DNA of 64,000 bases. Origin: Escherichia phage FP43. The notes under the pieces are model-generated. The model worked only from the letters and a program-made list of their open reading frames with translations, searched no databases and had not been told where the DNA came from. This document shows, piece by piece, positions 14,782 through 35,375 of the stretch. Each line of letters begins with the position of its first letter. The first letter of the stretch is position 1. The stretch lies in the sequence record MN648445; one strand, 5' to 3'. Both the position numbers and the translations under genes were made by a program.

Positions 14782-14804
14782 GGGAGACTTCGGTCTCCCT
14801 TTTG
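14782..14804 (+). terminator. rho-independent terminator after gene 32
   Basis: GGGAGAC-TTCG-GTCTCCC + TTTT. Confidence 0.8.
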
Positions 14805-14831
14805 GGCATCTGTAACTTACCTAAAAAAGTT

Positions 14832-14860
14832 GTTTACTTCCTCCAAGGACATGATACTAT
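14832..14860 (+). promoter_or_regulatory. early promoter cassette (PeSL-like)
   Basis: GTTTAC 14832-14837, N17, TACTAT 14855-14860; then CAACAACATGAGGAAA RBS block. Confidence 0.65.
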
Positions 14861-14889
14861 AGACCTATCAACAACATGAGGAAATCAAG

Positions 14890-15276
14890 ATGGAAATCGG
14901 AAAAACTTATATCATTAACCCTTTATTTAAAGATGACTTTGTCCAAGAAGCTCCACGCAATAACAGCCGGATGCTAGATTTGATCGAGAAACATGGCCCA
15001 AGTTTTGTTGTGGAAGAAGATGAATATGATGGCGACGGCTACAACGTAGTATGTGTAACCATGGAAGATGGCACAGAATGTTCTGCTGGCGGTCCGGCAG
15101 AAACTTATTTTGAAATTTATCCTGACGAGTTCAAATACTTCAACGAGGTGACTTTAGAAAAGCCTCAACCTATTGACGAAGGTATAGTTTTAGGTGTAAC
15201 AAAAATTCATTGTGTCGTGGATGAAACTAACGTTGACGAAATCATCGAACTTTTGCAAAAAACTTTTAAAAAGTAG
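14890..15276 (+). CDS. hypothetical protein (128 aa), paralog of 15338..15700
   Basis: Shared IGKTYIINP...HGPSFVV...DEFK.F.EV blocks with the next ORF; own promoter cassette. Confidence 0.6.
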   Translation: MEIGKTYIINPLFKDDFVQEAPRNNSRMLDLIEKHGPSFVVEEDEYDGDGYNVVCVTMEDGTECSAGGPAETYFEIYPDEFKYFNEVTLEKPQPIDEGIVLGVTKIHCVVDETNVDEIIELLQKTFKK

Positions 15277-15337: not shown

Positions 15338-15700
15338 ATGAAAATTGGAAAAACTTATATCATCAATCCAGAATGTAAAGCTATCTTCGCCAATGAATGC
15401 CCACAAAACGCCGATATGCTGGCTTTGATTGAGCTTCATGGTCCTAGTTTTGTTGTAAAAGACATGAACACAGATTATGATGATGATAAATGTGTAACCC
15501 GTGTAACTATGCGAGACGGTACTGAATTCGGTTTTGATGGTAAGCCAGGTTCATATTTTGAGCTTTATGATGATGAGTTTAAACACTTCATCGAGGTATC
15601 TCCAGAGTCTATTTCTAAACAATCACTCATCTTTGAAGTGACTACGGAAAATGCTCGAGATGTGATTGCAGAAATTAAAGAAATTTTTGGAATAAAATAG
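15338..15700 (+). CDS. hypothetical protein (120 aa), paralog of 14890..15276
   Basis: Clear similarity to the upstream ORF; own promoter cassette. Confidence 0.6.
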   Translation: MKIGKTYIINPECKAIFANECPQNADMLALIELHGPSFVVKDMNTDYDDDKCVTRVTMRDGTEFGFDGKPGSYFELYDDEFKHFIEVSPESISKQSLIFEVTTENARDVIAEIKEIFGIK

Positions 15701-27189: not shown

Positions 27190-28182
27190 ATGTTACCTGT
27201 CATCAGAAAACTTATTTCTCCAAAAGAACTGGCTGAGATTATTCCTTTGTCGGAAGCTTACGCATCACAAGTGGCTTCTCATCGCGAACAAGTTAATTCG
27301 ATTATGAACGGTGAAGACCCACGCAAACTTATTGTTGTAGGTCCTTGTTCAATTCATGACCCTATTGCTGCTGTTGAATACGGCAAACGTCTGGCTGAAC
27401 TTCAAACTCGTCTTCCTAATGTTCTGTTAGTGATGCGCGTTTATTTTGAAAAGCCTCGAACTACCGTAGGTTGGAAAGGTCTTGTAAATGATCCATATCT
27501 TGACGGAAGTTTTGATATGAACCACGGTCTTATAGTTGCACGAACATTGTGTCGTAAACTTCTACGTATGGGACTTCCATTAGCAACTGAAGTATTAGAC
27601 CCATTCACGATTAAGTATCTTTCTGGTATTTTCTCATGGGTTGCTATTGGCGCCCGTACGACTGAAAGTCAGACACATCGTGAAATTGCTTCGGGTCTAC
27701 CGATGTGCGTAGGCTTCAAGAACGCAACCAATGGTTCTATTAAAGTAGCTACAGACGCGATGTATAGTGCCGCCTGGCCTCATCGGTATATGGGTATGGA
27801 CGTCGATGGTACTGTAGGCATTGTTGAAGCTGAAGGTAATCAGAATACGCATATCGTATTGCGTGGCGGGACCAACGGCCCGAACTATCATTCTTCTGAT
27901 ATTCAAGAAGCTTCTAACAAAGCAAGGGCAGTAGGTCTGAATCATTATGTAATGGTTGACTGTAGCCATGCAAACGCTGATGGGCATTATAGCAATCAAA
28001 TTGGTATTGGTAAAAATTTAGCAGCTAATGATTTGGTCAAAGGAATTATGATAGAATCATTCCTACATGAAGGAAATCAAAAAATTTCCGATAATATGTC
28101 CTATGGCGTTTCCGTTACCGATGCGTGCATCAGTTGGGAACAAACTAAAGAGCTGTTAACTTATATTAATAAGGTTCAATAA
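27190..28182 (+). CDS. 3-deoxy-D-arabino-heptulosonate-7-phosphate (DAHP) synthase, class I (AroG/F/H-like)
   Basis: 330 aa; VVGPCSIHD and VYFEKPRTTVGWKGL and AIGARTTESQTHRE motifs align with E. coli AroG as recalled. Confidence 0.85.
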   Translation: MLPVIRKLISPKELAEIIPLSEAYASQVASHREQVNSIMNGEDPRKLIVVGPCSIHDPIAAVEYGKRLAELQTRLPNVLLVMRVYFEKPRTTVGWKGLVNDPYLDGSFDMNHGLIVARTLCRKLLRMGLPLATEVLDPFTIKYLSGIFSWVAIGARTTESQTHREIASGLPMCVGFKNATNGSIKVATDAMYSAAWPHRYMGMDVDGTVGIVEAEGNQNTHIVLRGGTNGPNYHSSDIQEASNKARAVGLNHYVMVDCSHANADGHYSNQIGIGKNLAANDLVKGIMIESFLHEGNQKISDNMSYGVSVTDACISWEQTKELLTYINKVQ

Positions 28183-28763
28183 TGAAAGCTAGCACATACC
28201 TTCAGATTGCATATCTGATTTCTCAAGAATCAAAATGTTGTTCATGGAAAGTTGGCGCAGTCATTGAAAAAGATGGGCGCATTATTTCTACTGGGTATAA
28301 CGGTTCACCTGCAGGTGGCGTTAACTGTTGCGAACATGCATCTGAAAATGGTTGGTTGAAGAATAAACCAATCCCAGTCATCGTTGCTGGGCATAAAGAA
28401 GGCACTACAGCATTTGGACGGGCCGATAATTTTGTTTTGGCTAAAGAACATCGGGCTGCTCATAGTGCATGGTCTGCCAATAACGAAATCCATGCGGAAC
28501 TGAATGCAATTTTGTTTGCAGCTCGTAAAGGTAATTCTATTGAAGGTGCTACGTTGTATACGACACTTTCTCCATGTCCTGATTGCACTAAAGCTATTAC
28601 ACAGTCAGGTATTAAAAAGGTTGTATATGCAGAATTATATGACCGATCTCCTGAAAATTGGGCAGACATTCTTAAACAAGCTGGTATTGAAGTAATTCAG
28701 TACTCTCGTAATAATCTTCGTTCTCTGAATTGGGAACAAATCCGAAACTTTTGTGGTGAATAA
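28182..28763 (+). CDS. cd: dCMP deaminase
   Basis: 193 aa as in T4 Cd; HAELNA and PCPDC zinc motifs. Confidence 0.9.
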   Translation: MKASTYLQIAYLISQESKCCSWKVGAVIEKDGRIISTGYNGSPAGGVNCCEHASENGWLKNKPIPVIVAGHKEGTTAFGRADNFVLAKEHRAAHSAWSANNEIHAELNAILFAARKGNSIEGATLYTTLSPCPDCTKAITQSGIKKVVYAELYDRSPENWADILKQAGIEVIQYSRNNLRSLNWEQIRNFCGE

Positions 28764-28764
28764 T

Positions 28765-29061
28765 ATGATTTTAACTGAACAAGAAACTATGGTTCTTCGT
28801 GAACGTATTAAAACTATTCTGTCTGTAGGCGTTCATTGTGTTGTATTTGAAAAGGCTAACGGTGATGTTCGTACGATGTTTGCCTCCCGTGATGAACTTG
28901 AAGTCAAATACGAAAATAACAATCCGGCAACAGAAGTTCGTTATGAACCTCGTGAATCAGTTCGAGCATTCGATACCAAGTTAGGCCAGTGGCGTTCTTT
29001 CCGCCTTGATAAAGTAATTTCGGTTGATGGTACTCCGGTAGAACGTTTGCTTCTTATGTAA
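28765..29061 (+). CDS. hypothetical protein (98 aa)
   Basis: ATG 28765 just after the cd stop; the track start 28753 is a GTG. Confidence 0.5.
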   Translation: MILTEQETMVLRERIKTILSVGVHCVVFEKANGDVRTMFASRDELEVKYENNNPATEVRYEPRESVRAFDTKLGQWRSFRLDKVISVDGTPVERLLLM

Positions 29062-29063
29062 TA

Positions 29064-29088
29064 TGCTTTACGAATAGTATGGTATTAT
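29064..29088 (+). promoter_or_regulatory. middle promoter (MotA box + -10) upstream of gene 31
   Basis: TGCTTTA 29064-29070, 12-nt gap, TATTAT 29083-29088. Confidence 0.55.
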
Positions 29089-29118
29089 TAATCTATCGAC
29101 AAACAACAAGGAAATAAG

Positions 29119-29451
29119 ATGTCTGAAGTACAACTCCCAATTCGTGCTGTTGGTGAATATGTCATTCTGGTTTCTGAACCCGCTCAAGCAGGTGATGAAG
29201 AAGTTACCGAATCAGGACTTGTGATTGGTAAACGTGTTCAAGGTGAAGTTCCTGAACTATGCGTAGTTCATTCTGTAGGTCCTGATGTTCCTGAAGGTTT
29301 TGTTGAAGTCGGTGATTTGACTCCACTACCAGTTGGACAAATTCGAAATGTTCCACATCCATTTGTGGCTTTGGGACTTAAACAACCTAAAGAAATTAAA
29401 CAGAAATTCGTAACATGCCACTATAAAGCTATTCCGTGTCTTTATAAGTGA
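29119..29451 (+). CDS. 31: gp31 co-chaperonin (GroES-like)
   Basis: 110 aa; matches T4 gp31 as recalled. Confidence 0.9.
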
Positions 29452-29459
29452 TATAAATA
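29452..29459 (+). promoter_or_regulatory. possible late promoter TATAAATA upstream of rIII
   Basis: Exact TATAAATA on the plus strand right after the gene 31 stop. Confidence 0.35.
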
Positions 29460-29575
29460 ACTATATGAAGAGAACACTCTTCTAAGCGGTAGCCTACAAC
29501 TGAGAGACTTGTCGAAAGAAGGTGAAATTCAGACGAACGTGGCTACTAAATATTATCTCGAATTGAGAATTTAAA

Positions 29576-29824
29576 ATGATTAAACAATTACAACACGCTC
29601 TTGAACTGCAACGCAACGCATGGAATAACGGTCACGAAAACTACGGCGCGTCAATTGATGTTGAAGCCGAAGCACTGGAAATCCTGCGTTATTTCAAACA
29701 CCTGAATCCTGCTCAGGCTACTCTGGCTTCTGAACTGGAAGCTAAAGATGAATTGAAATATGCTAAGCCTCTGGCTTCTGCAGCACGCAAAGCAGTTCGT
29801 CATTTTGTTATTACCCTTAAATAA
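29576..29824 (+). CDS. rIII: rIII lysis inhibition accessory protein
   Basis: 82 aa as in T4 RIII; position after gene 31. Confidence 0.8.
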   Translation: MIKQLQHALELQRNAWNNGHENYGASIDVEAEALEILRYFKHLNPAQATLASELEAKDELKYAKPLASAARKAVRHFVITLK

Positions 29825-30118
29825 GTTTTAGGTGATTCGCTACCTTAGTGCGGCTAGAAAATCGAGGAGCCGTCGAACTGTCTGATTAATGATTTGCGAA
29901 TCATTATAGTTTTAAGACCCCGGCAGTTTTACGGTGTACCTCTTGAATGTATTTTATACTATCACGCGTCAGAAAAAGGTTATCTGTCTAAGTCGTGGTT
30001 GGTATGATGACGGGTTTATGGTTATCCTGTCGTTAAATATCCAAAACCTATGTTCCCCTTGAGGGCTTGCGCAGGCAATGTCAATAAGTCCTGCATTTTC
30101 ATTTAAAGAGAATTTATA

Positions 30119-30298
30119 ATGGCAAAACAAGCTAAAGCAAAGAAAGCAGTTGAAAAGAAAGTTGATGGTACCTCTAAACGCGCTGGATACAAGCGTGGGT
30201 CGAACTCTCGTATTAATCAAACAGTTGAGAAGATCATGCGCAGAGCACGTGCAGTTCTTCGAGATGATGCTTCTCGTTTTGGAAAGGTTGTTGCATAA
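30119..30298 (+). CDS. small lysine/arginine-rich protein (59 aa)
   Basis: ATG 30119 to TAA 30296-30298; sequence MAKQAKAKKAVEKKVDGTSKRAGYKRGSNSRINQTVEKIMRRARAVLRDDASRFGKVVA; followed 5 nt later by a strong terminator; missing from the track (under 60 aa). Confidence 0.45.
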   Translation: MAKQAKAKKAVEKKVDGTSKRAGYKRGSNSRINQTVEKIMRRARAVLRDDASRFGKVVA

Positions 30299-30303
30299 TT
30301 TTA

Positions 30304-30326
30304 GGGAGACTTCGGTCTCCCTTTTG
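30304..30326 (+). terminator. rho-independent terminator after the small basic ORF
   Basis: GGGAGAC-TTCG-GTCTCCC + TTTTG. Confidence 0.8.
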
Positions 30327-30357
30327 TGCGTTTAGGGCAGAAAAAGTTTAAAAAGAT

Positions 30358-30386
30358 GTTTACTCTCCTGTAGGATGTGTTACTAT
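30358..30386 (+). promoter_or_regulatory. early promoter cassette
   Basis: GTTTAC 30358-30363, N17, TACTAT 30381-30386. Confidence 0.6.
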
Positions 30387-30428
30387 AGACTTGTACCATC
30401 TAATCAATAAAACAACCTGGAGAACAAA

Positions 30429-30797
30429 ATGAAAATCAATCTGAACTCATACATCAAATGTAAAGACCACGACGGTTATAAAGCTATCGAAATTAAAGAA
30501 TTCCAGTGGATGTTATACAAAGAGCAATTTGAGATCGTAAGTTGTATGACCCCTGAAGGTCCTTCAAATGATTTCTCTTGGAAAATTGTGTTAGCAAACT
30601 TTTTCACAGGTGACACATACGAATTAAAAACTATTATTACAGGTAAAATTCGCTCAGAAACATATGTTGACGAAGAAACTGGTTACTCTGAAGATGTCAC
30701 ATGGTATCAAAATGGACGCATTACAGCAGATAACCTGATCGAAAAAATGAAAGCCAAAGGTGTTTTAAATTTAGACAATTGGATTAAAGTTGCATAA
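30429..30797 (+). CDS. hypothetical protein (122 aa)
   Basis: ATG ORF with own promoter cassette and RBS. Confidence 0.55.
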   Translation: MKINLNSYIKCKDHDGYKAIEIKEFQWMLYKEQFEIVSCMTPEGPSNDFSWKIVLANFFTGDTYELKTIITGKIRSETYVDEETGYSEDVTWYQNGRITADNLIEKMKAKGVLNLDNWIKVA

Positions 30798-30801
30798 AAC
30801 A

Positions 30802-30841
30802 GTTTACTTTGGTACAGGTTATGTTATTATAGACCTGTACC
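30802..30841 (+). promoter_or_regulatory. early promoter cassette with 9-bp hairpin around the -10 (PeSL-like)
   Basis: GTTTAC 30802-30807, TATTAT 30825-30830; inverted repeat GGTACAGGT (30811-30819) / ACCTGTACC (30833-30841). Confidence 0.6.
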
Positions 30842-30871
30842 AACAAACAACTTAAACATCTGGAGAATAAA

Positions 30872-31237
30872 ATGAACTACATCAACTTCGAACGCAAATA
30901 TGTTTCTAACGGTATCGCTGGTTCTTCTGAAGTTATTTGCTTATGGAAACATAAAAATGGTTCAGTATGTGAAATTGAGCAGTATATGACTCCTAATTAC
31001 GTTTATATGCGATTTGAAAATGGCATCACGGTTTCAATCACGATGGAAGGTTCCAACTTCAAAATTGCATTAGATGACGATTTCCGTCAGCGTGATTTAG
31101 GTACTCATCCTTGCTGGAATGGTGATAATCGTAAACTTCTGGTTAAAACTTGGATTCGTCATATCCTGAGTAACCGAGCTAAACCTGAACATCTCGAAGC
31201 AATCTTTGATGTAGTTCTTAATGAATTCGATATCTAA
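30872..31237 (+). CDS. hypothetical protein (121 aa)
   Basis: ATG ORF with own promoter cassette and RBS GGAGAA. Confidence 0.55.
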   Translation: MNYINFERKYVSNGIAGSSEVICLWKHKNGSVCEIEQYMTPNYVYMRFENGITVSITMEGSNFKIALDDDFRQRDLGTHPCWNGDNRKLLVKTWIRHILSNRAKPEHLEAIFDVVLNEFDI

Positions 31238-31244
31238 TTTAACT

Positions 31245-31259
31245 GGGAGCTTCGGCTCC
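31245..31259 (+). terminator. hairpin after ORF 30872..31237
   Basis: GGGAGC-TTCG-GCTCC; no clear U-tract. Confidence 0.35.
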
Positions 31260-31272
31260 TACTGAGGAAATT

Positions 31273-31887
31273 ATGTTTAAAGTTAATACTTTTTATAAAA
31301 TGAATTTTAAAAATGGGGATATTACTCCACGCCTTAAAAACATGTTCTCATATGACCTTATCGAGCCTTTTGAAGTTTTAGAAGTTACTGATGCCGGCTC
31401 AGTTTGTGAAATTAGAACTTCTGAAGGTAAAATTTATCAGGCAGGTGTCGGTAAATTCAGTAATTGTTTTACTTTAATATTCTCGACTGATTTAGATGAG
31501 CATTTTATTGAATGTCCTAACCCTAAGGTCTATGAAGTTCCACATCAAGAAATTAAGAAAAATGGACCGCACGAATATACGAAGGTTGAAACTCCTCACG
31601 GCGTGATGTGGCGTCATAACTCTCCTTTTGGAAGTAAAGGAACATTTGCTCAACTGGCTAAGCCCTACGACGATGAAAAATATGTAGTAGTCCTTTTATC
31701 TGAACAGGGTACTCAAGACCGTGGATGTCAACGAAGTGGTTTACTAAGTGAACTCGAAGCTCATAACCGAGCACGTGAATTCGTTGAGAAAAATCCTGGT
31801 TCTGAAGCTCTAGTCATGAAAGCAATTACTCAATATATCACTGCTCAACCTGTTGTTCATCCGGTAGAAATTAATTTCATTAAGTAG
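31273..31887 (+). CDS. hypothetical protein (204 aa)
   Basis: ATG ORF with RBS GAGGAAA. Confidence 0.55.
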   Translation: MFKVNTFYKMNFKNGDITPRLKNMFSYDLIEPFEVLEVTDAGSVCEIRTSEGKIYQAGVGKFSNCFTLIFSTDLDEHFIECPNPKVYEVPHQEIKKNGPHEYTKVETPHGVMWRHNSPFGSKGTFAQLAKPYDDEKYVVVLLSEQGTQDRGCQRSGLLSELEAHNRAREFVEKNPGSEALVMKAITQYITAQPVVHPVEINFIK

Positions 31888-31917
31888 TTTACATCCAAGG
31901 ACGGATTAGAGTATAAT
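31887..31917 (+). promoter_or_regulatory. early promoter
   Basis: GTTTAC 31887-31892, TATAAT 31912-31917 (19-nt spacer). Confidence 0.5.
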
Positions 31918-31943
31918 GATTTCTTTACTAAGTGGAAAAAAAT

Positions 31944-32141
31944 ATGAAATTTTTAATAGCACAAACAGTCCAATTAAAAGGTGTTGGAATTCCTGGGGTG
32001 ATTTTTAAAGTTCTCCCTGAATTTAAAACCAGCGCTGGAATTATCAATGAAGCGTATGCTGTTCAATGGGTTGATTGGACTTCTGACATACGTATGGGTA
32101 AAGAGTTATCTCCTATTAAAGGGTTGAAACATGTTGAATAA
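31944..32141 (+). CDS. hypothetical protein (65 aa)
   Basis: ATG 31944; the track start 31932 is a GTG. Confidence 0.4.
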   Translation: MKFLIAQTVQLKGVGIPGVIFKVLPEFKTSAGIINEAYAVQWVDWTSDIRMGKELSPIKGLKHVE

Positions 32142-32343
32142 ATTAATCCAGAAATTGTTAGGTACAGAAATGGTTGAAGTTACGTATCGTGTGACTGATG
32201 TAAGCCCATGGACCCGAAAAGTTGAACCATATACTAAAACAATTAAAATGCTGAAATATGACAGTGGATTATCTATCAAAGACCGTCTACCGGCTTATGG
32301 TCATTGGGCTGATGTTGAAATTATAAGTGTTAAAGATGTCTGA
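32131..32343 (+). CDS. hypothetical protein (70 aa)
   Basis: ATG overlapping the upstream stop (ATGTTGAATAA). Confidence 0.4.
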   Translation: MLNKLIQKLLGTEMVEVTYRVTDVSPWTRKVEPYTKTIKMLKYDSGLSIKDRLPAYGHWADVEIISVKDV

Positions 32344-32794
32344 GTTAGAGATAAGAAGCAATTTCAAGTGGCCGTCATGTGCATTAAGTAACTTTGCTCA
32401 ATGGCCTTTTGTTATGGATGGTATTCAATTCGGAGGTCTTGAAGGATTTCTCCAAGGATGTAAGGTGAAAAATGTTGAACAACAAAGACGTATATTTGGG
32501 TTGTCTGGATTGGCCGCACAGCAAGCTGGAAGGTCTTATGCAAGAGCTCAGGACCGTGGGACTCTCTTCTGGTTAGGAGTTCCATTTTCAAGATACTCCG
32601 AAGCGTGGAAAGAATTATACACAAATGCATATTTTGAAGCCGCGATCCAAAACAAGGGGTTTCGTGATGCCTTACAAGCCTCTAAAGGAAAAATTTTGAA
32701 GCACAGCATGGCCAGCCACCTAACAAAAGATGATACAATACTAACTGAAGATGAATTTATTGACGTGTTAAACCTATTAAGAGACTCTTTATGA
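32336..32794 (+). CDS. NADAR-like (YbiA/DUF1768-like) protein
   Basis: ATG 32336; ALSNFAQWPF..DGIQF...EGFLQGCKV resembles the NADAR signature of E. coli YbiA as recalled. Confidence 0.55.
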   Translation: MSELEIRSNFKWPSCALSNFAQWPFVMDGIQFGGLEGFLQGCKVKNVEQQRRIFGLSGLAAQQAGRSYARAQDRGTLFWLGVPFSRYSEAWKELYTNAYFEAAIQNKGFRDALQASKGKILKHSMASHLTKDDTILTEDEFIDVLNLLRDSL

Positions 32795-33606
32795 AGCCTA
32801 CTATTTTGACTGATATTGATGGTGTATGTTTAAGTTGGCAATCTGGACTTCCTTATTTTGCCCAAAAATATAATCTTCCATTAGAACATATTTTAAAAAT
32901 GATTCAGGACGAAAAATTTATTTCTCCTGGTAAACTGTTCAATACCGATGATAACCTCGGTAAACAATTAATAGAAAAATATAATCGCTCTGATTTTATT
33001 CGTTACTTAGCGCCTTATTCGGATGCTCTTCGAGTTATCAATAAACTAAAAGAAGACTATAATTTTGTAGCCGTGACGGCGCTAGGTGATTCAATTGATG
33101 CTCGATTGAATAGACAATTTAATTTGAATGCTTTGTTCCCAGGCGCTTTTTCTGAAGTAATGATGTGTGGTCATGATTCGTCAAAGGAACAATTATTCGA
33201 ACTAGCTAAAACAAAATATAACGTGATTTGTTACGTTGACGATTTAGCTCATCACTGTGACCATGCGGCAGAAATTCTTAATGTACCGATTTATTGGTTG
33301 GCCCGTGGTGAACGTGATGATATTCCTCGCACTGCACAACGTGTACACACGTGGGATGATATTGAATCTCGTTTGGTTCCACCCGAGCATAATTCAGATT
33401 CAGATCGTGAAGACCTTTTAAAACGATTGGCGGATTTGCTTAAAGAATCAGGTGCAACAAGCCCAGGTGCATGGCCTAATCAAATTGGCGCTCCGTCGAA
33501 TCCGTATACTTGGCGAACTCCAGGACCAACCGATATGCAGCCATGGTGGACGATTCAAAACTTTCCTTTAGATTCGTCCAAATGGACTTGGTCTATAAAT
33601 TGTTAA
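32791..33606 (+). CDS. HAD-superfamily phosphatase / nucleotidase-like protein
   Basis: 271 aa; N-terminal motif ILTDIDGVCL (DxDG nucleophile) and later YVDDL. Confidence 0.55.
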   Translation: MKPTILTDIDGVCLSWQSGLPYFAQKYNLPLEHILKMIQDEKFISPGKLFNTDDNLGKQLIEKYNRSDFIRYLAPYSDALRVINKLKEDYNFVAVTALGDSIDARLNRQFNLNALFPGAFSEVMMCGHDSSKEQLFELAKTKYNVICYVDDLAHHCDHAAEILNVPIYWLARGERDDIPRTAQRVHTWDDIESRLVPPEHNSDSDREDLLKRLADLLKESGATSPGAWPNQIGAPSNPYTWRTPGPTDMQPWWTIQNFPLDSSKWTWSINC

Positions 33607-33615
33607 GGGCTAATT

Positions 33616-33885
33616 ATGTTTGTAGTTCATGATATTACAGATGGCAAAAACACCACACGTGACTACGGTCATGTTAACATGTTCTTTCGAGACTGGCCGG
33701 TGTTTCGTTCAGTAAAAGACGCAGAAATATTTAAAGAGTGTGTTGAACAAGGGTTCATCTACATTTCAGAATATTATGTTGAAGGACTCGGTAAATGGAT
33801 TACCACTTATCAGAAAACGCTGAAATCGCTTCTAGATGAAGTGGCTTATAATAGAACCGTAACCAAAATCGAGGACATCAAATGA
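33616..33885 (+). CDS. hypothetical protein (89 aa)
   Basis: ATG ORF overlapping the ligase start. Confidence 0.45.
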   Translation: MFVVHDITDGKNTTRDYGHVNMFFRDWPVFRSVKDAEIFKECVEQGFIYISEYYVEGLGKWITTYQKTLKSLLDEVAYNRTVTKIEDIK

Positions 33886-35375
33886 TTTTAGATATTTTAA
33901 ACCAAATAGCTGCGATCGGTTCTACTAAAACAAAACAAGAAATCCTTAAGAAAAATAAGGACAACAAATTACTTGAACGTGTGTATCGTTTAACATATGC
34001 ACGTGGTATCCAGTATTATATTAAGAAATGGCCAGGACCAGGTGAAAGGTCTCAAGCGTATGGTCTTCTTGAATTAGATGACATGTTGGATTTTATTGAG
34101 TTCACATTAGCCACTCGTAAACTCACTGGTAATGCTGCAATTAAAGAGCTCATGGGTTATATCGCTGACGGTAAACCTGATGATGTAGAAGTCCTTCGTC
34201 GTGTAATGATGCGAGACCTTGAAGTAGGTGCTTCAGTGTCTATCGCGAATAAGGTGTGGCCTGGACTTATTCAATTGCAGCCACAGATGTTAGCATCTGC
34301 ATATGATGAGAAATTGATTACTAAAAATATTAAATGGCCTGCATTTGCCCAATTAAAGGCAGATGGTGCTCGTTGTTTCGCTGAAGTTCGCGATGATGGC
34401 GTTCAATTCTTTTCTCGTGCCGGTAACGAATACCATGGTCTTACTCTATTAGCAGATGAACTAATGGAAATGACTAAAGAAGCTCGTGAAAGACACCCTA
34501 ATGGGGTTTTAATCGACGGTGAATTAGTTTATCATTCATTTGATATTAAAAAGGCTGTGAGCTCAGGAAATGACCTGTCGTTCTTATTTGGCGATAATGA
34601 AGAATCCGAAGAAGTACAAGTTGCAGACCGTAGCACTTCAAATGGTTTAGCAAATAAATCTCTTCAAGGGACTATTTCTCCTAAAGAAGCGGAAGGTATG
34701 GTTCTTCAAGCCTGGGACTATGTTCCTTTAGATGAAGTCTACTCTGATGGCAAAATTAAAGGTCAGAAATACGATGTTCGTTTTGCTGCTCTTGAAAATA
34801 TGGCTGAAGGCTTTAAGCGAATTGAGCCAATTGAAAATCAGTTAGTTCGTAATCTTGACGAAGCTAAAGTGGTTTATAAAAAATATGTTGACCAAGGTCT
34901 TGAAGGTATTATCCTTAAAAACCGTGATTCATATTGGGAAAACAAACGCTCTAAGAACCTAATTAAATTTAAAGAAGTTATTGATATCGCTTTAGAAGTT
35001 GTAGGATACTACGAACACTCTAAAGACCCTAACAAATTAGGTGGTGTCGAACTCGTATCACGTTGTCGTCGTATTACAACCGATTGTGGTTCAGGGTTTA
35101 AAGATACAACTCATAAAACAGTTGATGGTGTAAAGGTTCTTATTCCTTTAGATGAGCGTCATGATTTAGACCGTGAACGATTAATGGCTGAAGCTCGTGA
35201 AGGTAAATTGATTGGACGTATTGCTGATTGCGAATGTAATGGTTGGGTTCATTCTAAAGGACGTGAAGGCACTGTAGGTATTTTCCTTCCAATTATTAAA
35301 GGGTTCCGTTTTGATAAAACAGAAGCGGATTCATTTGAAGACGTATTTGGACCGTGGTCCCAGACAGGTTTATAA
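33882..35375 (+). CDS. 30: ATP-dependent DNA ligase
   Basis: 497 aa; KADGAR adenylation motif; strong match to T4 gp30 as recalled. Confidence 0.95.
   Translation: MILDILNQIAAIGSTKTKQEILKKNKDNKLLERVYRLTYARGIQYYIKKWPGPGERSQAYGLLELDDMLDFIEFTLATRKLTGNAAIKELMGYIADGKPDDVEVLRRVMMRDLEVGASVSIANKVWPGLIQLQPQMLASAYDEKLITKNIKWPAFAQLKADGARCFAEVRDDGVQFFSRAGNEYHGLTLLADELMEMTKEARERHPNGVLIDGELVYHSFDIKKAVSSGNDLSFLFGDNEESEEVQVADRSTSNGLANKSLQGTISPKEAEGMVLQAWDYVPLDEVYSDGKIKGQKYDVRFAALENMAEGFKRIEPIENQLVRNLDEAKVVYKKYVDQGLEGIILKNRDSYWENKRSKNLIKFKEVIDIALEVVGYYEHSKDPNKLGGVELVSRCRRITTDCGSGFKDTTHKTVDGVKVLIPLDERHDLDRERLMAEAREGKLIGRIADCECNGWVHSKGREGTVGIFLPIIKGFRFDKTEADSFEDVFGPWSQTGL

Follow-up and report, generated by a model that had tools for sequence, protein, structure and literature searches.

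The DNA analysed here, a 64,000-nucleotide stretch of Escherichia phage FP43 referred to throughout as the window, shares 97–98% DNA identity with Mosigvirus genomes, and we assign its source to an RB69-like Mosigvirus. An open-reading-frame check returned two plus-strand ORFs, at 30429..30797 (122 amino acids) and 30872..31237 (121 amino acids), just where an earlier note on this DNA (the original prediction) had placed them. As that note also described, each ORF has its own early-promoter cassette before it, and the pair lies in the plastic region between rIII and ligase. By sequence comparison we identify the two ORFs as the Mosigvirus orthologues of T4 genes 30.8 and 30.7, which are already named and have no known function. 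The promoter-ORF layout is genuine, but it is usual within T4-type phages.

Genes 30.8 and 30.7 and their T4 counterparts

The product of the 30.8 orthologue (pI 5.0, soluble) matched the Pfam family PF06019 (Phage_30_8) with E = 1.7e-44 and 151.1 bits (cut-off 25), residues 2-121 aligning to model positions 3-123, and matched phrog_1507 with E = 2.9e-48. The product of the 30.7 orthologue (pI 6.1, soluble) matched PF06919 (Phage_T4_Gp30_7) with E = 4.1e-53 and 178.6 bits (cut-off 27), residues 1-120 aligning to positions 1-118, and phrog_1582 with E = 1.1e-65. The gene order, cd-31.1-31-rIII-30.9-30.8-30.7-...-30.3-30.2-30.1-30, is that of T4. Within it, 30.8 sits between 30.9 and 30.7, and 30.7 lies downstream of rIII-30.9-30.8 and upstream of 30.3-30.2-30.1-30, positions that match those of the T4 genes. 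The original prediction had taken the two ORFs for novel genes; they are instead T4 30.8 and 30.7, each with a Pfam and a PHROG family carried by 1,037 and 996 phage records, respectively. It had set against this the possibility of conserved core genes with known function. Conserved and named they are, but they are neither core genes nor genes of known function.

T4 30.7 (NP_049821) also encodes 121 amino acids, has the same neighbours, and is preceded by an early promoter with a stem-loop around the -10. FP43 shares its ribosome site, GGAGAAUAAAA, and the UUCG hairpin downstream of it, and the two proteins, 95% identical (dS 0.61, dN/dS 0.05), differ by only six amino-acid changes. The loci part downstream of 30.7, where FP43 has a 204-amino-acid ORF (orf204) and T4 has gene 30.6. 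T4 30.8 (NP_049822) shares with FP43 its family, its position between 30.9 and 30.7, the kind of promoter and the upstream terminator, but FP43 30.8 is a deeply diverged allele (38-44% amino-acid identity, dS ~2.5, 122 versus 110 amino acids).

Both T4 genes are classed as early-RNA and early-protein genes (PMC9697503, supplementary files 4 and 6), and their knock-down by CRISPRi-ART was scored 'Not Fit', that is, without fitness effect, in a laboratory host (PMC11879866, supplementary file 15). By analogy with T4, 30.8 and 30.7 of FP43 can be regarded as non-essential, immediate-early accessory genes.

Early promoters, RegB/S1 sites and hairpins

The cassettes proposed at 30358 and 30802 are confirmed as a 57-nt direct repeat (30358-30414 and 30802-30858, 74% identical), which extends into a second common block at the ribosome site, CTGGAGAAyAAAATGAA. 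The motif GTTTAC-N17-TAYTATAGA occurs exactly three times in the window (14832, 30358 and 30802). When up to two mismatches were allowed in the core, four matches were found against 0.52 expected, a number reached in none of 100 shuffles.

The predicted 30.8 promoter (30340..30389, plus strand) comprises an A-rich stretch (30340-30357), a -35 GTTTAC (30358-30363), a 17-nt spacer and a -10 TACTAT (30381-30386). The predicted 30.7 promoter (30802..30833, plus strand) begins 4 nt past the 30.8 stop codon, with its -35 GTTTAC at 30802-30807 and its -10 TATTAT at 30825-30830. Both show the marks of a T4-type early promoter: the -35, the 17-nt spacer, a -10 of the form TAnnAT, A-rich sequence upstream, plus-strand orientation and an early gene directly downstream. 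A generic sigma-70 scan left the first promoter unscored and gave the second only 9/12, and the total of promoter-like sites that it returned in the region was no higher than in shuffles. The promoter assignment therefore rests on the T4-specific consensus together with conservation. The position of the 30.8 promoter is kept in T4, teqskov, SA79RD, K65PH164 and PM2. The 30.7 promoter is near-identical in T4 and teqskov, the SA79RD annotation lists it as a T4 early promoter, and nearly all of 35 distinct relatives have a promoter of their own upstream of 30.7. Each gene is thus predicted to lie behind a T4-type early promoter, the kind used by the unmodified host sigma-70 polymerase in the first minutes.

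The Shine-Dalgarno sequence of each gene, GGAG, is embedded in an 11-nt plus-strand site of the RegB/S1 type, for which the consensus is GGAGRAYARAA and the T4 optimum is GGAGAAUAAAA (Durand 2006, PMC1702504). The 30.7 site (30862..30872) reads GGAGAATAAAA, an exact copy of the optimum; the 30.8 site (30419..30429) reads GGAGAACAAAA, which fits the degenerate consensus, its last A being the A of the 30.8 ATG. The consensus is matched three times in the window against 0.42 expected. In folds of 30358-30416 and 30802-30860 the RNA just 5' of the Shine-Dalgarno sequence is unpaired, the 11-mers lying just beyond the folded stretches. RegB cleavage in the Shine-Dalgarno region of the T4 30.7 early transcript is known from experiment (PMC9409239, citing Truncaite et al. 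2006), and a functional regB, a gene that lies outside the window, has been reported in RB69-type phages (PMC3014915). Both FP43 ribosome sites are predicted targets of the RegB endoribonuclease, aided by ribosomal protein S1. The RegB-controlled early transcripts of T4 (motA, 30.7 and others) likewise combine a GGAG Shine-Dalgarno sequence and an A-rich tract in an 11-nt site with an early promoter; cleavage is established on the T4 30.7 transcript, and the FP43 sites are predicted from sequence. Truncaite et al. (2006, Virology 344:378) reportedly described this region in 16 T4-type phages including RB69, where it has a pair of early promoters along with a terminator, a stem-loop and RegB sites. 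That study, Sanson and Uzan (1993) and Durand et al. (2006, PMC1702504) are the sources for the T4 transcripts.

From the T4-type promoter and the RegB/S1-matching ribosome site a short burst of synthesis straight after infection is predicted. As in T4, the two elements together would give a short, self-limiting pulse of each protein.

Upstream of the first cassette, after gene 30.9, lies a predicted intrinsic terminator (30303..30328, plus strand), with an 8-bp stem, a C(UUCG)G tetraloop and a following UUUUGUG. Its hairpin (30303-30322) folds at -14.1 kcal/mol (z = -3.9, equalled in 0 of 200 shuffles), and T4, teqskov and K65PH164 retain the stem pairing through the different, compensatory sequence GGACTCC/GGAGTCC. 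An identical 22-nt copy of the hairpin is found at 14783, after gene 32. This hairpin followed by its U-run is the sole canonical terminator at the locus. The ORFs had been described as self-contained promoter-ORF units, but neither has a canonical terminator behind it, so the units are not closed; transcripts from both promoters probably continue into the downstream genes.

The hairpin that the original prediction noted behind the second stop codon is genuine. It spans 31244..31261 (plus strand), directly before the Shine-Dalgarno sequence (GAGG) of orf204 (31273-31887), and its C(UUCG)G-capped core GGGAGC-UUCG-GCUCC folds at -10.8 kcal/mol (z = -2.7). T4, teqskov and Klebsiella phage K65PH164 retain it, and the change of an A-U to a G-C pair is compensatory. 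Because a U-run is absent behind it, it is not a canonical intrinsic terminator. An Rfam scan of 29400-32400 gave a chance match only, which scored 20 bits where the gathering score is 382.

PeSL-like cassettes, a promoter stem-loop and ORF exchange

In T4-like phages, PeSL elements consist of a stem-loop, an A-rich stretch, an early promoter TTTACW-N17-TAYWAT and a Shine-Dalgarno/ATG (Arbiol et al. 2010, PMC2839356; Comeau et al. 2014, PMC4122927). Both FP43 cassettes match the PST/T4 clade consensus for PeSL promoters, with TTTACT-N17-TACTAT in the first, TTTACT-N17-TATTAT in the second and GGAG...ATG behind each. The first is a full PeSL, with the terminator hairpin at 30303-30322 as its 5' stem-loop part, followed by the A-rich stretch, the promoter at 30358 and the Shine-Dalgarno sequence. 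A third copy of the cassette, with the identical terminator hairpin, occupies 14783-14863. Like the FP43 cassettes, PeSLs are repeated intergenic elements that flank small accessory ORFs in plastic parts of the genome and coincide with ORF replacement or insertion. The genes between the FP43 cassettes are widely conserved and not ORFans, and the likeness is one of sequence; terminator or attenuator activity and mini-circles have been described for the RB49/phi1 elements only (PMC2839356).

The second cassette is a variant. A PeSL stem-loop stands upstream of the promoter, whereas here it wraps the -10 (30809..30843, plus strand). This perfect 11-bp inverted repeat (arms 30809-30819 and 30833-30843), which the original prediction did not mention, folds as RNA at -19.7 kcal/mol (z = -5.0). 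The longest perfect stem of at least 7 bp encloses the -10 in 26 of the 35 distinct 30.7 upstream regions, and the best stem in these regions averages 9.7 bp against 5.96 +/- 0.96 in shuffles.

An inverted repeat of this kind could also be a DNA element, either an operator for a dimeric repressor or a recombination cruciform; it overlaps the -10, a place for a repressor to act, and a recombination-site role has been proposed for PeSL stem-loops (PMC2839356). The stems of the relatives make this quite improbable. Their sequence is wholly different in at least seven lineages while pairing is retained, unlike a sequence-specific protein site; their G-U pairs are found in the plus (mRNA) sense only, which fits an RNA structure; and in one lineage, of Salmonella/Klebsiella type, the 3' arm has shifted onto the Shine-Dalgarno sequence, some 25 nt further downstream, an arrangement that is sensible for RNA only. 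As an RNA stem-loop it could form only in read-through RNA, because the predicted start site falls downstream of its 5' arm. There it would most likely either mark or protect the upstream message at its 3' end or attenuate read-through. With strong covariation behind it, the stem-loop is a candidate transcriptional or translational insulator.

That the cassettes serve as exchange points is borne out in relatives. The Tequatrovirus teqskov carries a 30.8 allele of the window type between T4-type cassettes. Before the 30.8 ATG its sequence is 90-100% T4-like, the 30.8 ORF is 72-95% window-like and only 38-65% T4-like, and from the stop codon/-35 onwards it is T4-like again; the junctions coincide with the start codon on one side and the stop codon/-35 on the other, and 30.8 has been swapped whole. 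In other genera (PM2, ZX14, K65PH164, L008 and L009) 30.8 and 30.7 are separated by one or two inserted ORFs. In these comparisons the conserved cassettes are the places of ORF exchange or insertion, and the region offers a clean natural case of single-ORF exchange with junctions exactly at regulatory cassettes. As a genome feature the locus adds little, the genes, the promoters and the role of the cassettes in shuffling having already been described for T4-type phages.

Protein features, conservation and possible function

AlphaFold models of both proteins were of high predicted confidence by pLDDT (92.8 for gp30.8, 91.1 for gp30.7). The gp30.8 model combines about nine beta strands with a C-terminal helix and a pair of short terminal strands; that of gp30.7 has seven beta strands and two C-terminal helices. 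Neither fold had a convincing match in the PDB or BFVD, and a Foldseek search of gp30.7 against BFVD returned family members only. Sequence searches of the PDB with single proteins and with profiles gave nothing under E = 0.4, and there was no functional match in Pfam, NCBIfam, PHROGs or PADLOC, the last of which models defence and not anti-defence proteins. A full-text literature search found no functional study of gp30.7 or gp30.8, and two phage transposon-mutagenesis studies do not include T4 genes. The claim that the products lack a recognisable enzymatic motif or function held up in the family, catalytic-residue and fold comparisons. In the gp30.8 family W118 is the sole invariant residue, with G44, D48, G72, A100 and G111 near-invariant; a candidate catalytic DHDG motif is lost across the family, as is C39. 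The two genes are not tandem paralogues (hhalign probability 0.2). Neither orf204 (2.6) nor the neighbour of 30.8 in phage 4MG, considered as a hidden 30.7 (0.2), was retained as a relative of 30.7.

The Cys and His residues highlighted in the second ORF are present, but two of them had been misnumbered, positions 80 and 82 being H79 and C81. With C23, C33, C81, H27, H79, H97 and H107, FP43 gp30.7 could be thought a small zinc-binding protein. However, among 47 sequences H27 and H79 are the only invariant Cys/His residues: relatives carry T, L or E in place of C23, A in place of C33, and S, G or A in place of C81. The alignment holds no conserved four-ligand Cys/His set, and gp30.7 has no match to the zinc-finger families of Pfam. 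As the cysteines are unconserved, a zinc site is extremely unlikely. What is invariant is an Arg/His cluster, R72-x-R74...H79...W82...R87.

The two families are found in about half of 2,024 gp32-bearing records, and neither occurs under any cyanophage, Acinetobacter or Vibrio name in the list of T4-likes. Both are restricted to phages of Enterobacterales, with 30.8 additionally in Aeromonas phages and, without 30.7, in the Vequintavirinae (rV5-like phages). By identity to T4, few proteins of the region are better conserved than gp30.7: gp30.7, gp31, rIII and 30.3 are all 93-97% identical to T4 with dS of 0.2-0.6. The window-type 30.8 allele also occurs in some Tequatroviruses, such as teqskov (87%, dN/dS 0.11). 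The low dN/dS of both genes (0.05 for 30.7) counts toward both ORFs being real. Such extreme conservation of gp30.7 is unlike the usual expectation for an arms-race protein, and so counts against the host- or defence-binding reading given below.

A gp30.7 as conserved as its block neighbours suggests a conserved partner, which might belong to the phage itself. In that case gp30.7, and perhaps gp30.8, might for instance serve as an accessory or regulatory subunit of neighbouring nucleotide-metabolism or replication/repair proteins (cd, ligase, 30.3) instead of acting on the host. The 30.8 ... 30.7 order, which is intact even in the most distant carrier (37% identity), also speaks for this. We think this unlikely: knock-down in T4 carried no fitness cost (PMC11879866), most T4-likes with the same core replication and nucleotide enzymes (such as cyanophages, Acinetobacter and Vibrio phages) lack the family, and rV5-like phages have 30.8 without 30.7.

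The explanation that best covers the whole, to which we give a probability of roughly 80%, is that the locus holds the orthologues of T4 30.8 and 30.7 in early-promoter cassettes with RegB sites. For the products themselves we suggest tentatively, at somewhat less than even odds and from context, that they are small, soluble proteins of a single domain that lack conserved catalytic residues and bind an Enterobacterales-specific host or defence component. For gp30.7 the partner would be strongly conserved, perhaps an anionic ligand, and contacted through the R72/R74/H79/W82/R87 cluster, and gp30.8 would exist as several deeply diverged, exchangeable alleles.

The original prediction went further, in expecting host-takeover or anti-defence genes. 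Dedicated inhibitors or sponges directed against an Enterobacterales immune system are possible, if doubtful. The genes are immediate-early in T4 and dispensable in a laboratory K-12/B host, and they occur in phages of Enterobacterales (30.8 also of Aeromonas). The alleles of 30.8 are deep and exchangeable, the gene has moved into the unrelated Vequintavirinae, both products are small and single-domain, with folds that nothing in the PDB convincingly matches, and the invariant Arg/His/Trp cluster of gp30.7 would be well suited to bind a nucleotide signal. Against this, neither protein resembles a characterised inhibitor in sequence or fold (Pfam, NCBIfam, PHROGs, PDB and BFVD), PADLOC was empty, though its models cover defence proteins, and the literature searched gave no experimental hint. 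gp30.7, at 95% identity across genera and a dN/dS of 0.05, showed no sign of diversifying selection.

A more speculative picture, which we would sooner doubt than adopt, joins these elements: two unrelated effectors with folds unlike any solved one, released in a RegB-limited pulse as infection begins, would each neutralise a specific Enterobacterales factor, the invariant Arg/His/Trp pocket of gp30.7 sequestering an anionic ligand and the stem-loop acting as a general insulator. If so, the effector targets might be, for example, an immune sensor or signal; the insulator would uncouple the cassette from upstream transcription, and the lineage with its 3' arm on the Shine-Dalgarno sequence would translate only from the cassette's own promoter.

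The two families are abundant (about 1,000 phages each), are expressed early in T4 and can be dispensed with in the laboratory. Purifying selection on both is strong, and neither has a recognisable solved fold. Their abundance, early expression, purifying selection and laboratory dispensability make them reasonable candidates for host-range, anti-defence and host-takeover screens.

An exhaustive HMM search of 1.84 billion representatives with the gp30.8 profile returned only 29 matches. Two long SprB-repeat proteins, in which a beta-hairpin stretch was matched repeatedly, were judged spurious, and the others are either proteins of about 100-130 amino acids or fragments.

A known T4 early gene pair

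The two ORFs, at 30429..30797 (122 aa) and 30872..31237 (121 aa), are present as the original prediction had placed them. The first matches PF06019 "Phage GP30.8" with 151 bits (cut-off 25) and falls in PHROG 1507, while the second matches PF06919 "Phage Gp30.7" with 179 bits (cut-off 27) and falls in PHROG 1582; both PHROGs are function-unknown families. As the gene order of the window (cd, 31.1, 31, rIII, 30.9, 30.8, 30.7, ..., 30.3, 30.2, 30.1, 30 [ligase]) is also that of T4, these matches identify the ORFs as orthologues of T4 genes 30.8 and 30.7. Across 30300-31300 the DNA is 97-98% identical to Mosigvirus genomes, e.g. Mizar, phiEC1 and SA79RD, and the phage is a T4-type member of the RB69 group (Mosigvirus). 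We conclude with high confidence that this is the known T4 early gene pair 30.8/30.7 in a known regulatory setting; the feature is real, already known and ordinary for the T4-type phage group. A conserved terminator, early promoters, a stem-loop and RegB sites were reportedly described here by Truncaite and colleagues (Virology, 2006) for 16 T4-type phages including RB69. Novel genes had been expected in this hyperplastic region, but gp30.8 occurs in 1,037 phage records and gp30.7 in 996, about half of the 2,024 with a gp32 homologue. The idea that 30.7 and 30.8 are paralogues of one another was rejected.

Among the neighbouring genes, a 330-aa DAHP synthase (PF00793, the first enzyme of aromatic amino-acid synthesis) is encoded just upstream of cd (27190-28182), a gene not found at that place in T4 and annotated in related Mosigviruses (SA79RD). 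The 59-aa gp30.9 (30119-30298; pI 11.4, 18 Lys/Arg), which has its own terminator and is 95-96% identical to T4 gp30.9, resembles small nucleic-acid-binding or ribosome-associated proteins in composition.

Promoters, stem-loops and ribosome sites

The proposal that each ORF has its own promoter cassette (30358, 30802) was borne out, as a 57-nt direct repeat lies upstream of the two ORFs (30358-30414, 30802-30858; 74% identical), with both ribosome sites in a second common block. The window holds exactly three copies of the core GTTTAC-N17-TAYTATAGA (14832, 30358, 30802), and four when up to two mismatches are allowed, against 0.5 expected. Judged by its sequence, this core is the T4 early-promoter form, and both cassettes fit the consensus TTTACW-N17-TAYWAT of the promoter/early stem-loop (PeSL) shuffling elements of the T4/PST pair (PMC4122927). 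About a dozen T4-type early promoters lie in the 64 kb, every one on the + strand, and those at 30358 and 30802 are the closest pair (444 nt apart). These calls rest on the phage-specific consensus and on cross-genus conservation; a generic sigma-70 scan was uninformative here, giving no more sites than shuffles, scoring the 30.7 promoter only 9/12 and missing that of 30.8. Five other + strand early promoters (22060, 23243, 24649, 26775, 37706) have short dyad symmetry within the 17-nt spacer, e.g. ACCACAA..TTGTGGT or ACACAT..ATGTGT, with AGG at the centre.

Upstream of the 30.8 promoter, gene 30.9 is followed by a canonical terminator at 30303-30322 (-14.1 kcal/mol, z = -3.9), which has a C(UUCG)G loop and a U-run; its stem differs in sequence in T4-type relatives while keeping its pairing. 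Cassette 1, the region before 30.8, comprises a stem-loop, an A-rich stretch, promoter, Shine-Dalgarno (SD) sequence and ATG, and therefore shares every listed part of a PeSL element. A 22-nt hairpin, GGGAGACTTCGGTCTCCCTTTTG, identical to that at 30304-30326 also directly follows gene 32; together with the early promoter downstream of it (at 14832, GTTTAC-N17-TACTATAGA, of the same kind as those of the cassettes) it occupies 14783-14863, and behind this two tandem paralogous small ORFs (14890-15276, 15338-15700) both start M(E/K)IGKTYIINP.

Cassette 2, before 30.7, starts 4 nt past the 30.8 stop codon and is a variant of the PeSL arrangement, as its stem-loop, a perfect 11-bp inverted repeat (30809-30819/30833-30843; -19.7 kcal/mol, z = -5.0), wraps the -10 element instead of lying upstream of the promoter. 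We compared the 95 nt upstream of 30.7 from each of 44 phage loci, giving 35 distinct sequences. In 26 of these the longest perfect stem (at least 7 bp) encloses the -10 hexamer, and the stems fall into at least seven unrelated sequences, e.g. TTGGTACAGGT, GCTGATTGAGTGT, TTTGTAGGAGAC, TTGGGTGGT, TTGGTGTAGGAGTA, GGTGAGGGTCT and GCAAGGGCATC. The best stem averages 9.7 bp; dinucleotide shuffles average 5.96 +/- 0.96 bp and reach 9 bp in only 1.5% of cases. G-U pairs are present in the mRNA sense. Covariation strongly supports the reading of this stem as an RNA structure. As the predicted start site is downstream of its 5' arm, the stem would form only in read-through RNA from upstream, where it may attenuate read-through or shield the upstream message at its 3' end. 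One lineage (30.7-carrying loci L023, L024, L027, L040, L041 and L043) has a stem that begins in the promoter spacer and a 3' arm shifted to the GGAG of the 30.7 SD/RegB site (CTCCGTTGTAT ... ATACAACGGAG); hiding this GGAG would silence 30.7 translation from read-through RNA only.

The phage endoribonuclease RegB, helped by ribosomal protein S1, cuts at GGAGRAYARAA, with GGAGAAUAAAA as the T4 optimum (Durand et al. 2006, PMC1702504). The predicted 30.7 site (30862-30872) is exactly this optimum and that of 30.8 (30419-30429), GGAGAACAAAA, fits the degenerate consensus; the window holds only three such sites against 0.42 expected, and the next gene, orf204, has GAGG without a RegB/S1 site. In T4, the SD region of the 30.7 early transcript has served as a RegB site in experiments (PMC9409239), and both genes are assigned to the early class at the RNA and the protein level (PMC9697503 supplementary files 4 and 6). 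FP43 would be expected to make both proteins in a strong burst at the onset of infection, followed by RegB shut-off. Taken together, sequence, conservation and the T4 literature support well a mechanism of early promoter, RegB-sensitive SD, stem-loops and cassette-mediated exchange.

The two genes had further been described as self-contained units. Each does bring a promoter and a ribosome site of its own, but no canonical terminator follows either ORF. The hairpin predicted after the 30.7 stop is real (31244-31261, -10.8 kcal/mol), and its conservation involves a compensatory change; it lies directly against the SD of orf204 and lacks a U-run. By analogy with the T4 cluster "preceding gene 30", transcripts started at either promoter probably extend into downstream genes. 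At 31273-31887 the 204-aa orf204 (phrog_17531, no Pfam family) takes the place of T4 gene 30.6, and a near-consensus sigma-70 promoter follows it (TTTACA-N18-TATAAT, 11/12, 31888-31917).

The proteins and their possible role

Both proteins are soluble (pI 6.1 for gp30.7, 5.0 for gp30.8) and under purifying selection (dN/dS 0.05 for 30.7 against T4, 0.11 for 30.8 against teqskov). Structure prediction, suggested alongside the original prediction, gave confident AlphaFold models, neither of which has a recognisable solved fold. That of gp30.8 (pLDDT 92.8) combines about nine beta strands with a C-terminal helix and has two short strands at the termini, and that of gp30.7 (pLDDT 91.1) consists of seven strands with two helices at the C-terminus. 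When 1.84 billion proteins were searched exhaustively with a gp30.8 profile, only 29 cluster representatives matched; all are small and single-domain except two SprB-repeat matches, which were spurious. The gp30.8 family keeps only structural-looking residues, and its DHDG motif and C39 are lost. In gp30.7, N5, F6, H27, R74, H79, A110 and D113 are invariant and R72, W82, R87, K92 and R96 nearly so. The Cys residues previously pointed out in gp30.7 vary among relatives, and a zinc site was therefore rejected. The sole functional hint is a conserved Arg/His/Trp patch where the last strand meets the first helix.

Carriers infect Escherichia, Shigella, Klebsiella, Enterobacter, Yersinia, Salmonella, Citrobacter, Serratia, Erwinia and Pectobacterium, with Aeromonas for 30.8 only; cyanophages and Acinetobacter or Vibrio phages are absent from the organism names listed for carriers. 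Our preferred reading, to which we give a probability of roughly 40%, is that gp30.7 and gp30.8 are non-enzymatic binding proteins acting against a host or defence component peculiar to Enterobacterales. The first of two main alternatives, a dedicated anti-defence role, is somewhat unlikely; the second, a role within the phage's own machinery, we consider improbable. The fitness of T4 in the laboratory host is unaffected when either gene is knocked down (PMC11879866 supplementary file 15). What keeps the region of some interest is this pair of abundant early proteins, which come from function-unknown families and show no solved fold that could be recognised, together with the covarying stem-loop that encloses the -10 of the 30.7 promoter.

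Exchange of genes at the cassettes

Compared with T4 (locus L001), 28182-35375 forms a sharp mosaic of interleaved conserved and diverged genes. Genes 31, rIII, 30.9, 30.7 and 30.3 have 93-97% amino-acid identity (dS 0.2-0.6), cd, 30.2, 30.1 and 30 have 57-73% (dS 1.3 to above 2.5), and 30.8 has 38-44% (dS about 2.5). This pattern suggests repeated Tequatrovirus/Mosigvirus recombination on a gene-by-gene scale.

The 30.8 allele of the window also occurs in Tequatrovirus teqskov (87% identity). In a three-way alignment, teqskov follows T4 at 90-100% identity as far as the 30.8 ATG, is then 72-95% window-like and 38-65% T4-like across the ORF, and becomes T4-like again from the stop codon/-35. 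As identity switches at these points, the 30.8 ORF has been exchanged as a unit; the junctions lie in shared regulatory sequences, as proposed by the PeSL model of ORF exchange (PMC2839356). The 30.8/30.7 junction is an insertion site too: PM2 and ZX14 each have two additional ORFs there, K65PH164 has a single one, and two close metagenomic contigs differ in their inserts. Vequintavirinae such as 4MG carry 30.8 without 30.7. The 30.9 and 30.8 ORFs share their last 9 nt, GTTGCATAA (…Val-Ala-stop; 30290-30298 and 30789-30797), which may be a remnant of a former cassette junction or a coincidence. Finally, a 154-aa predicted protein (P0011) on a 2,021-base ENA contig combines the N-terminal two thirds of gp30.7 with a 30.3 (PF08010) domain, representing either a natural deletion that fused 30.7 and 30.3 or an assembly artefact.
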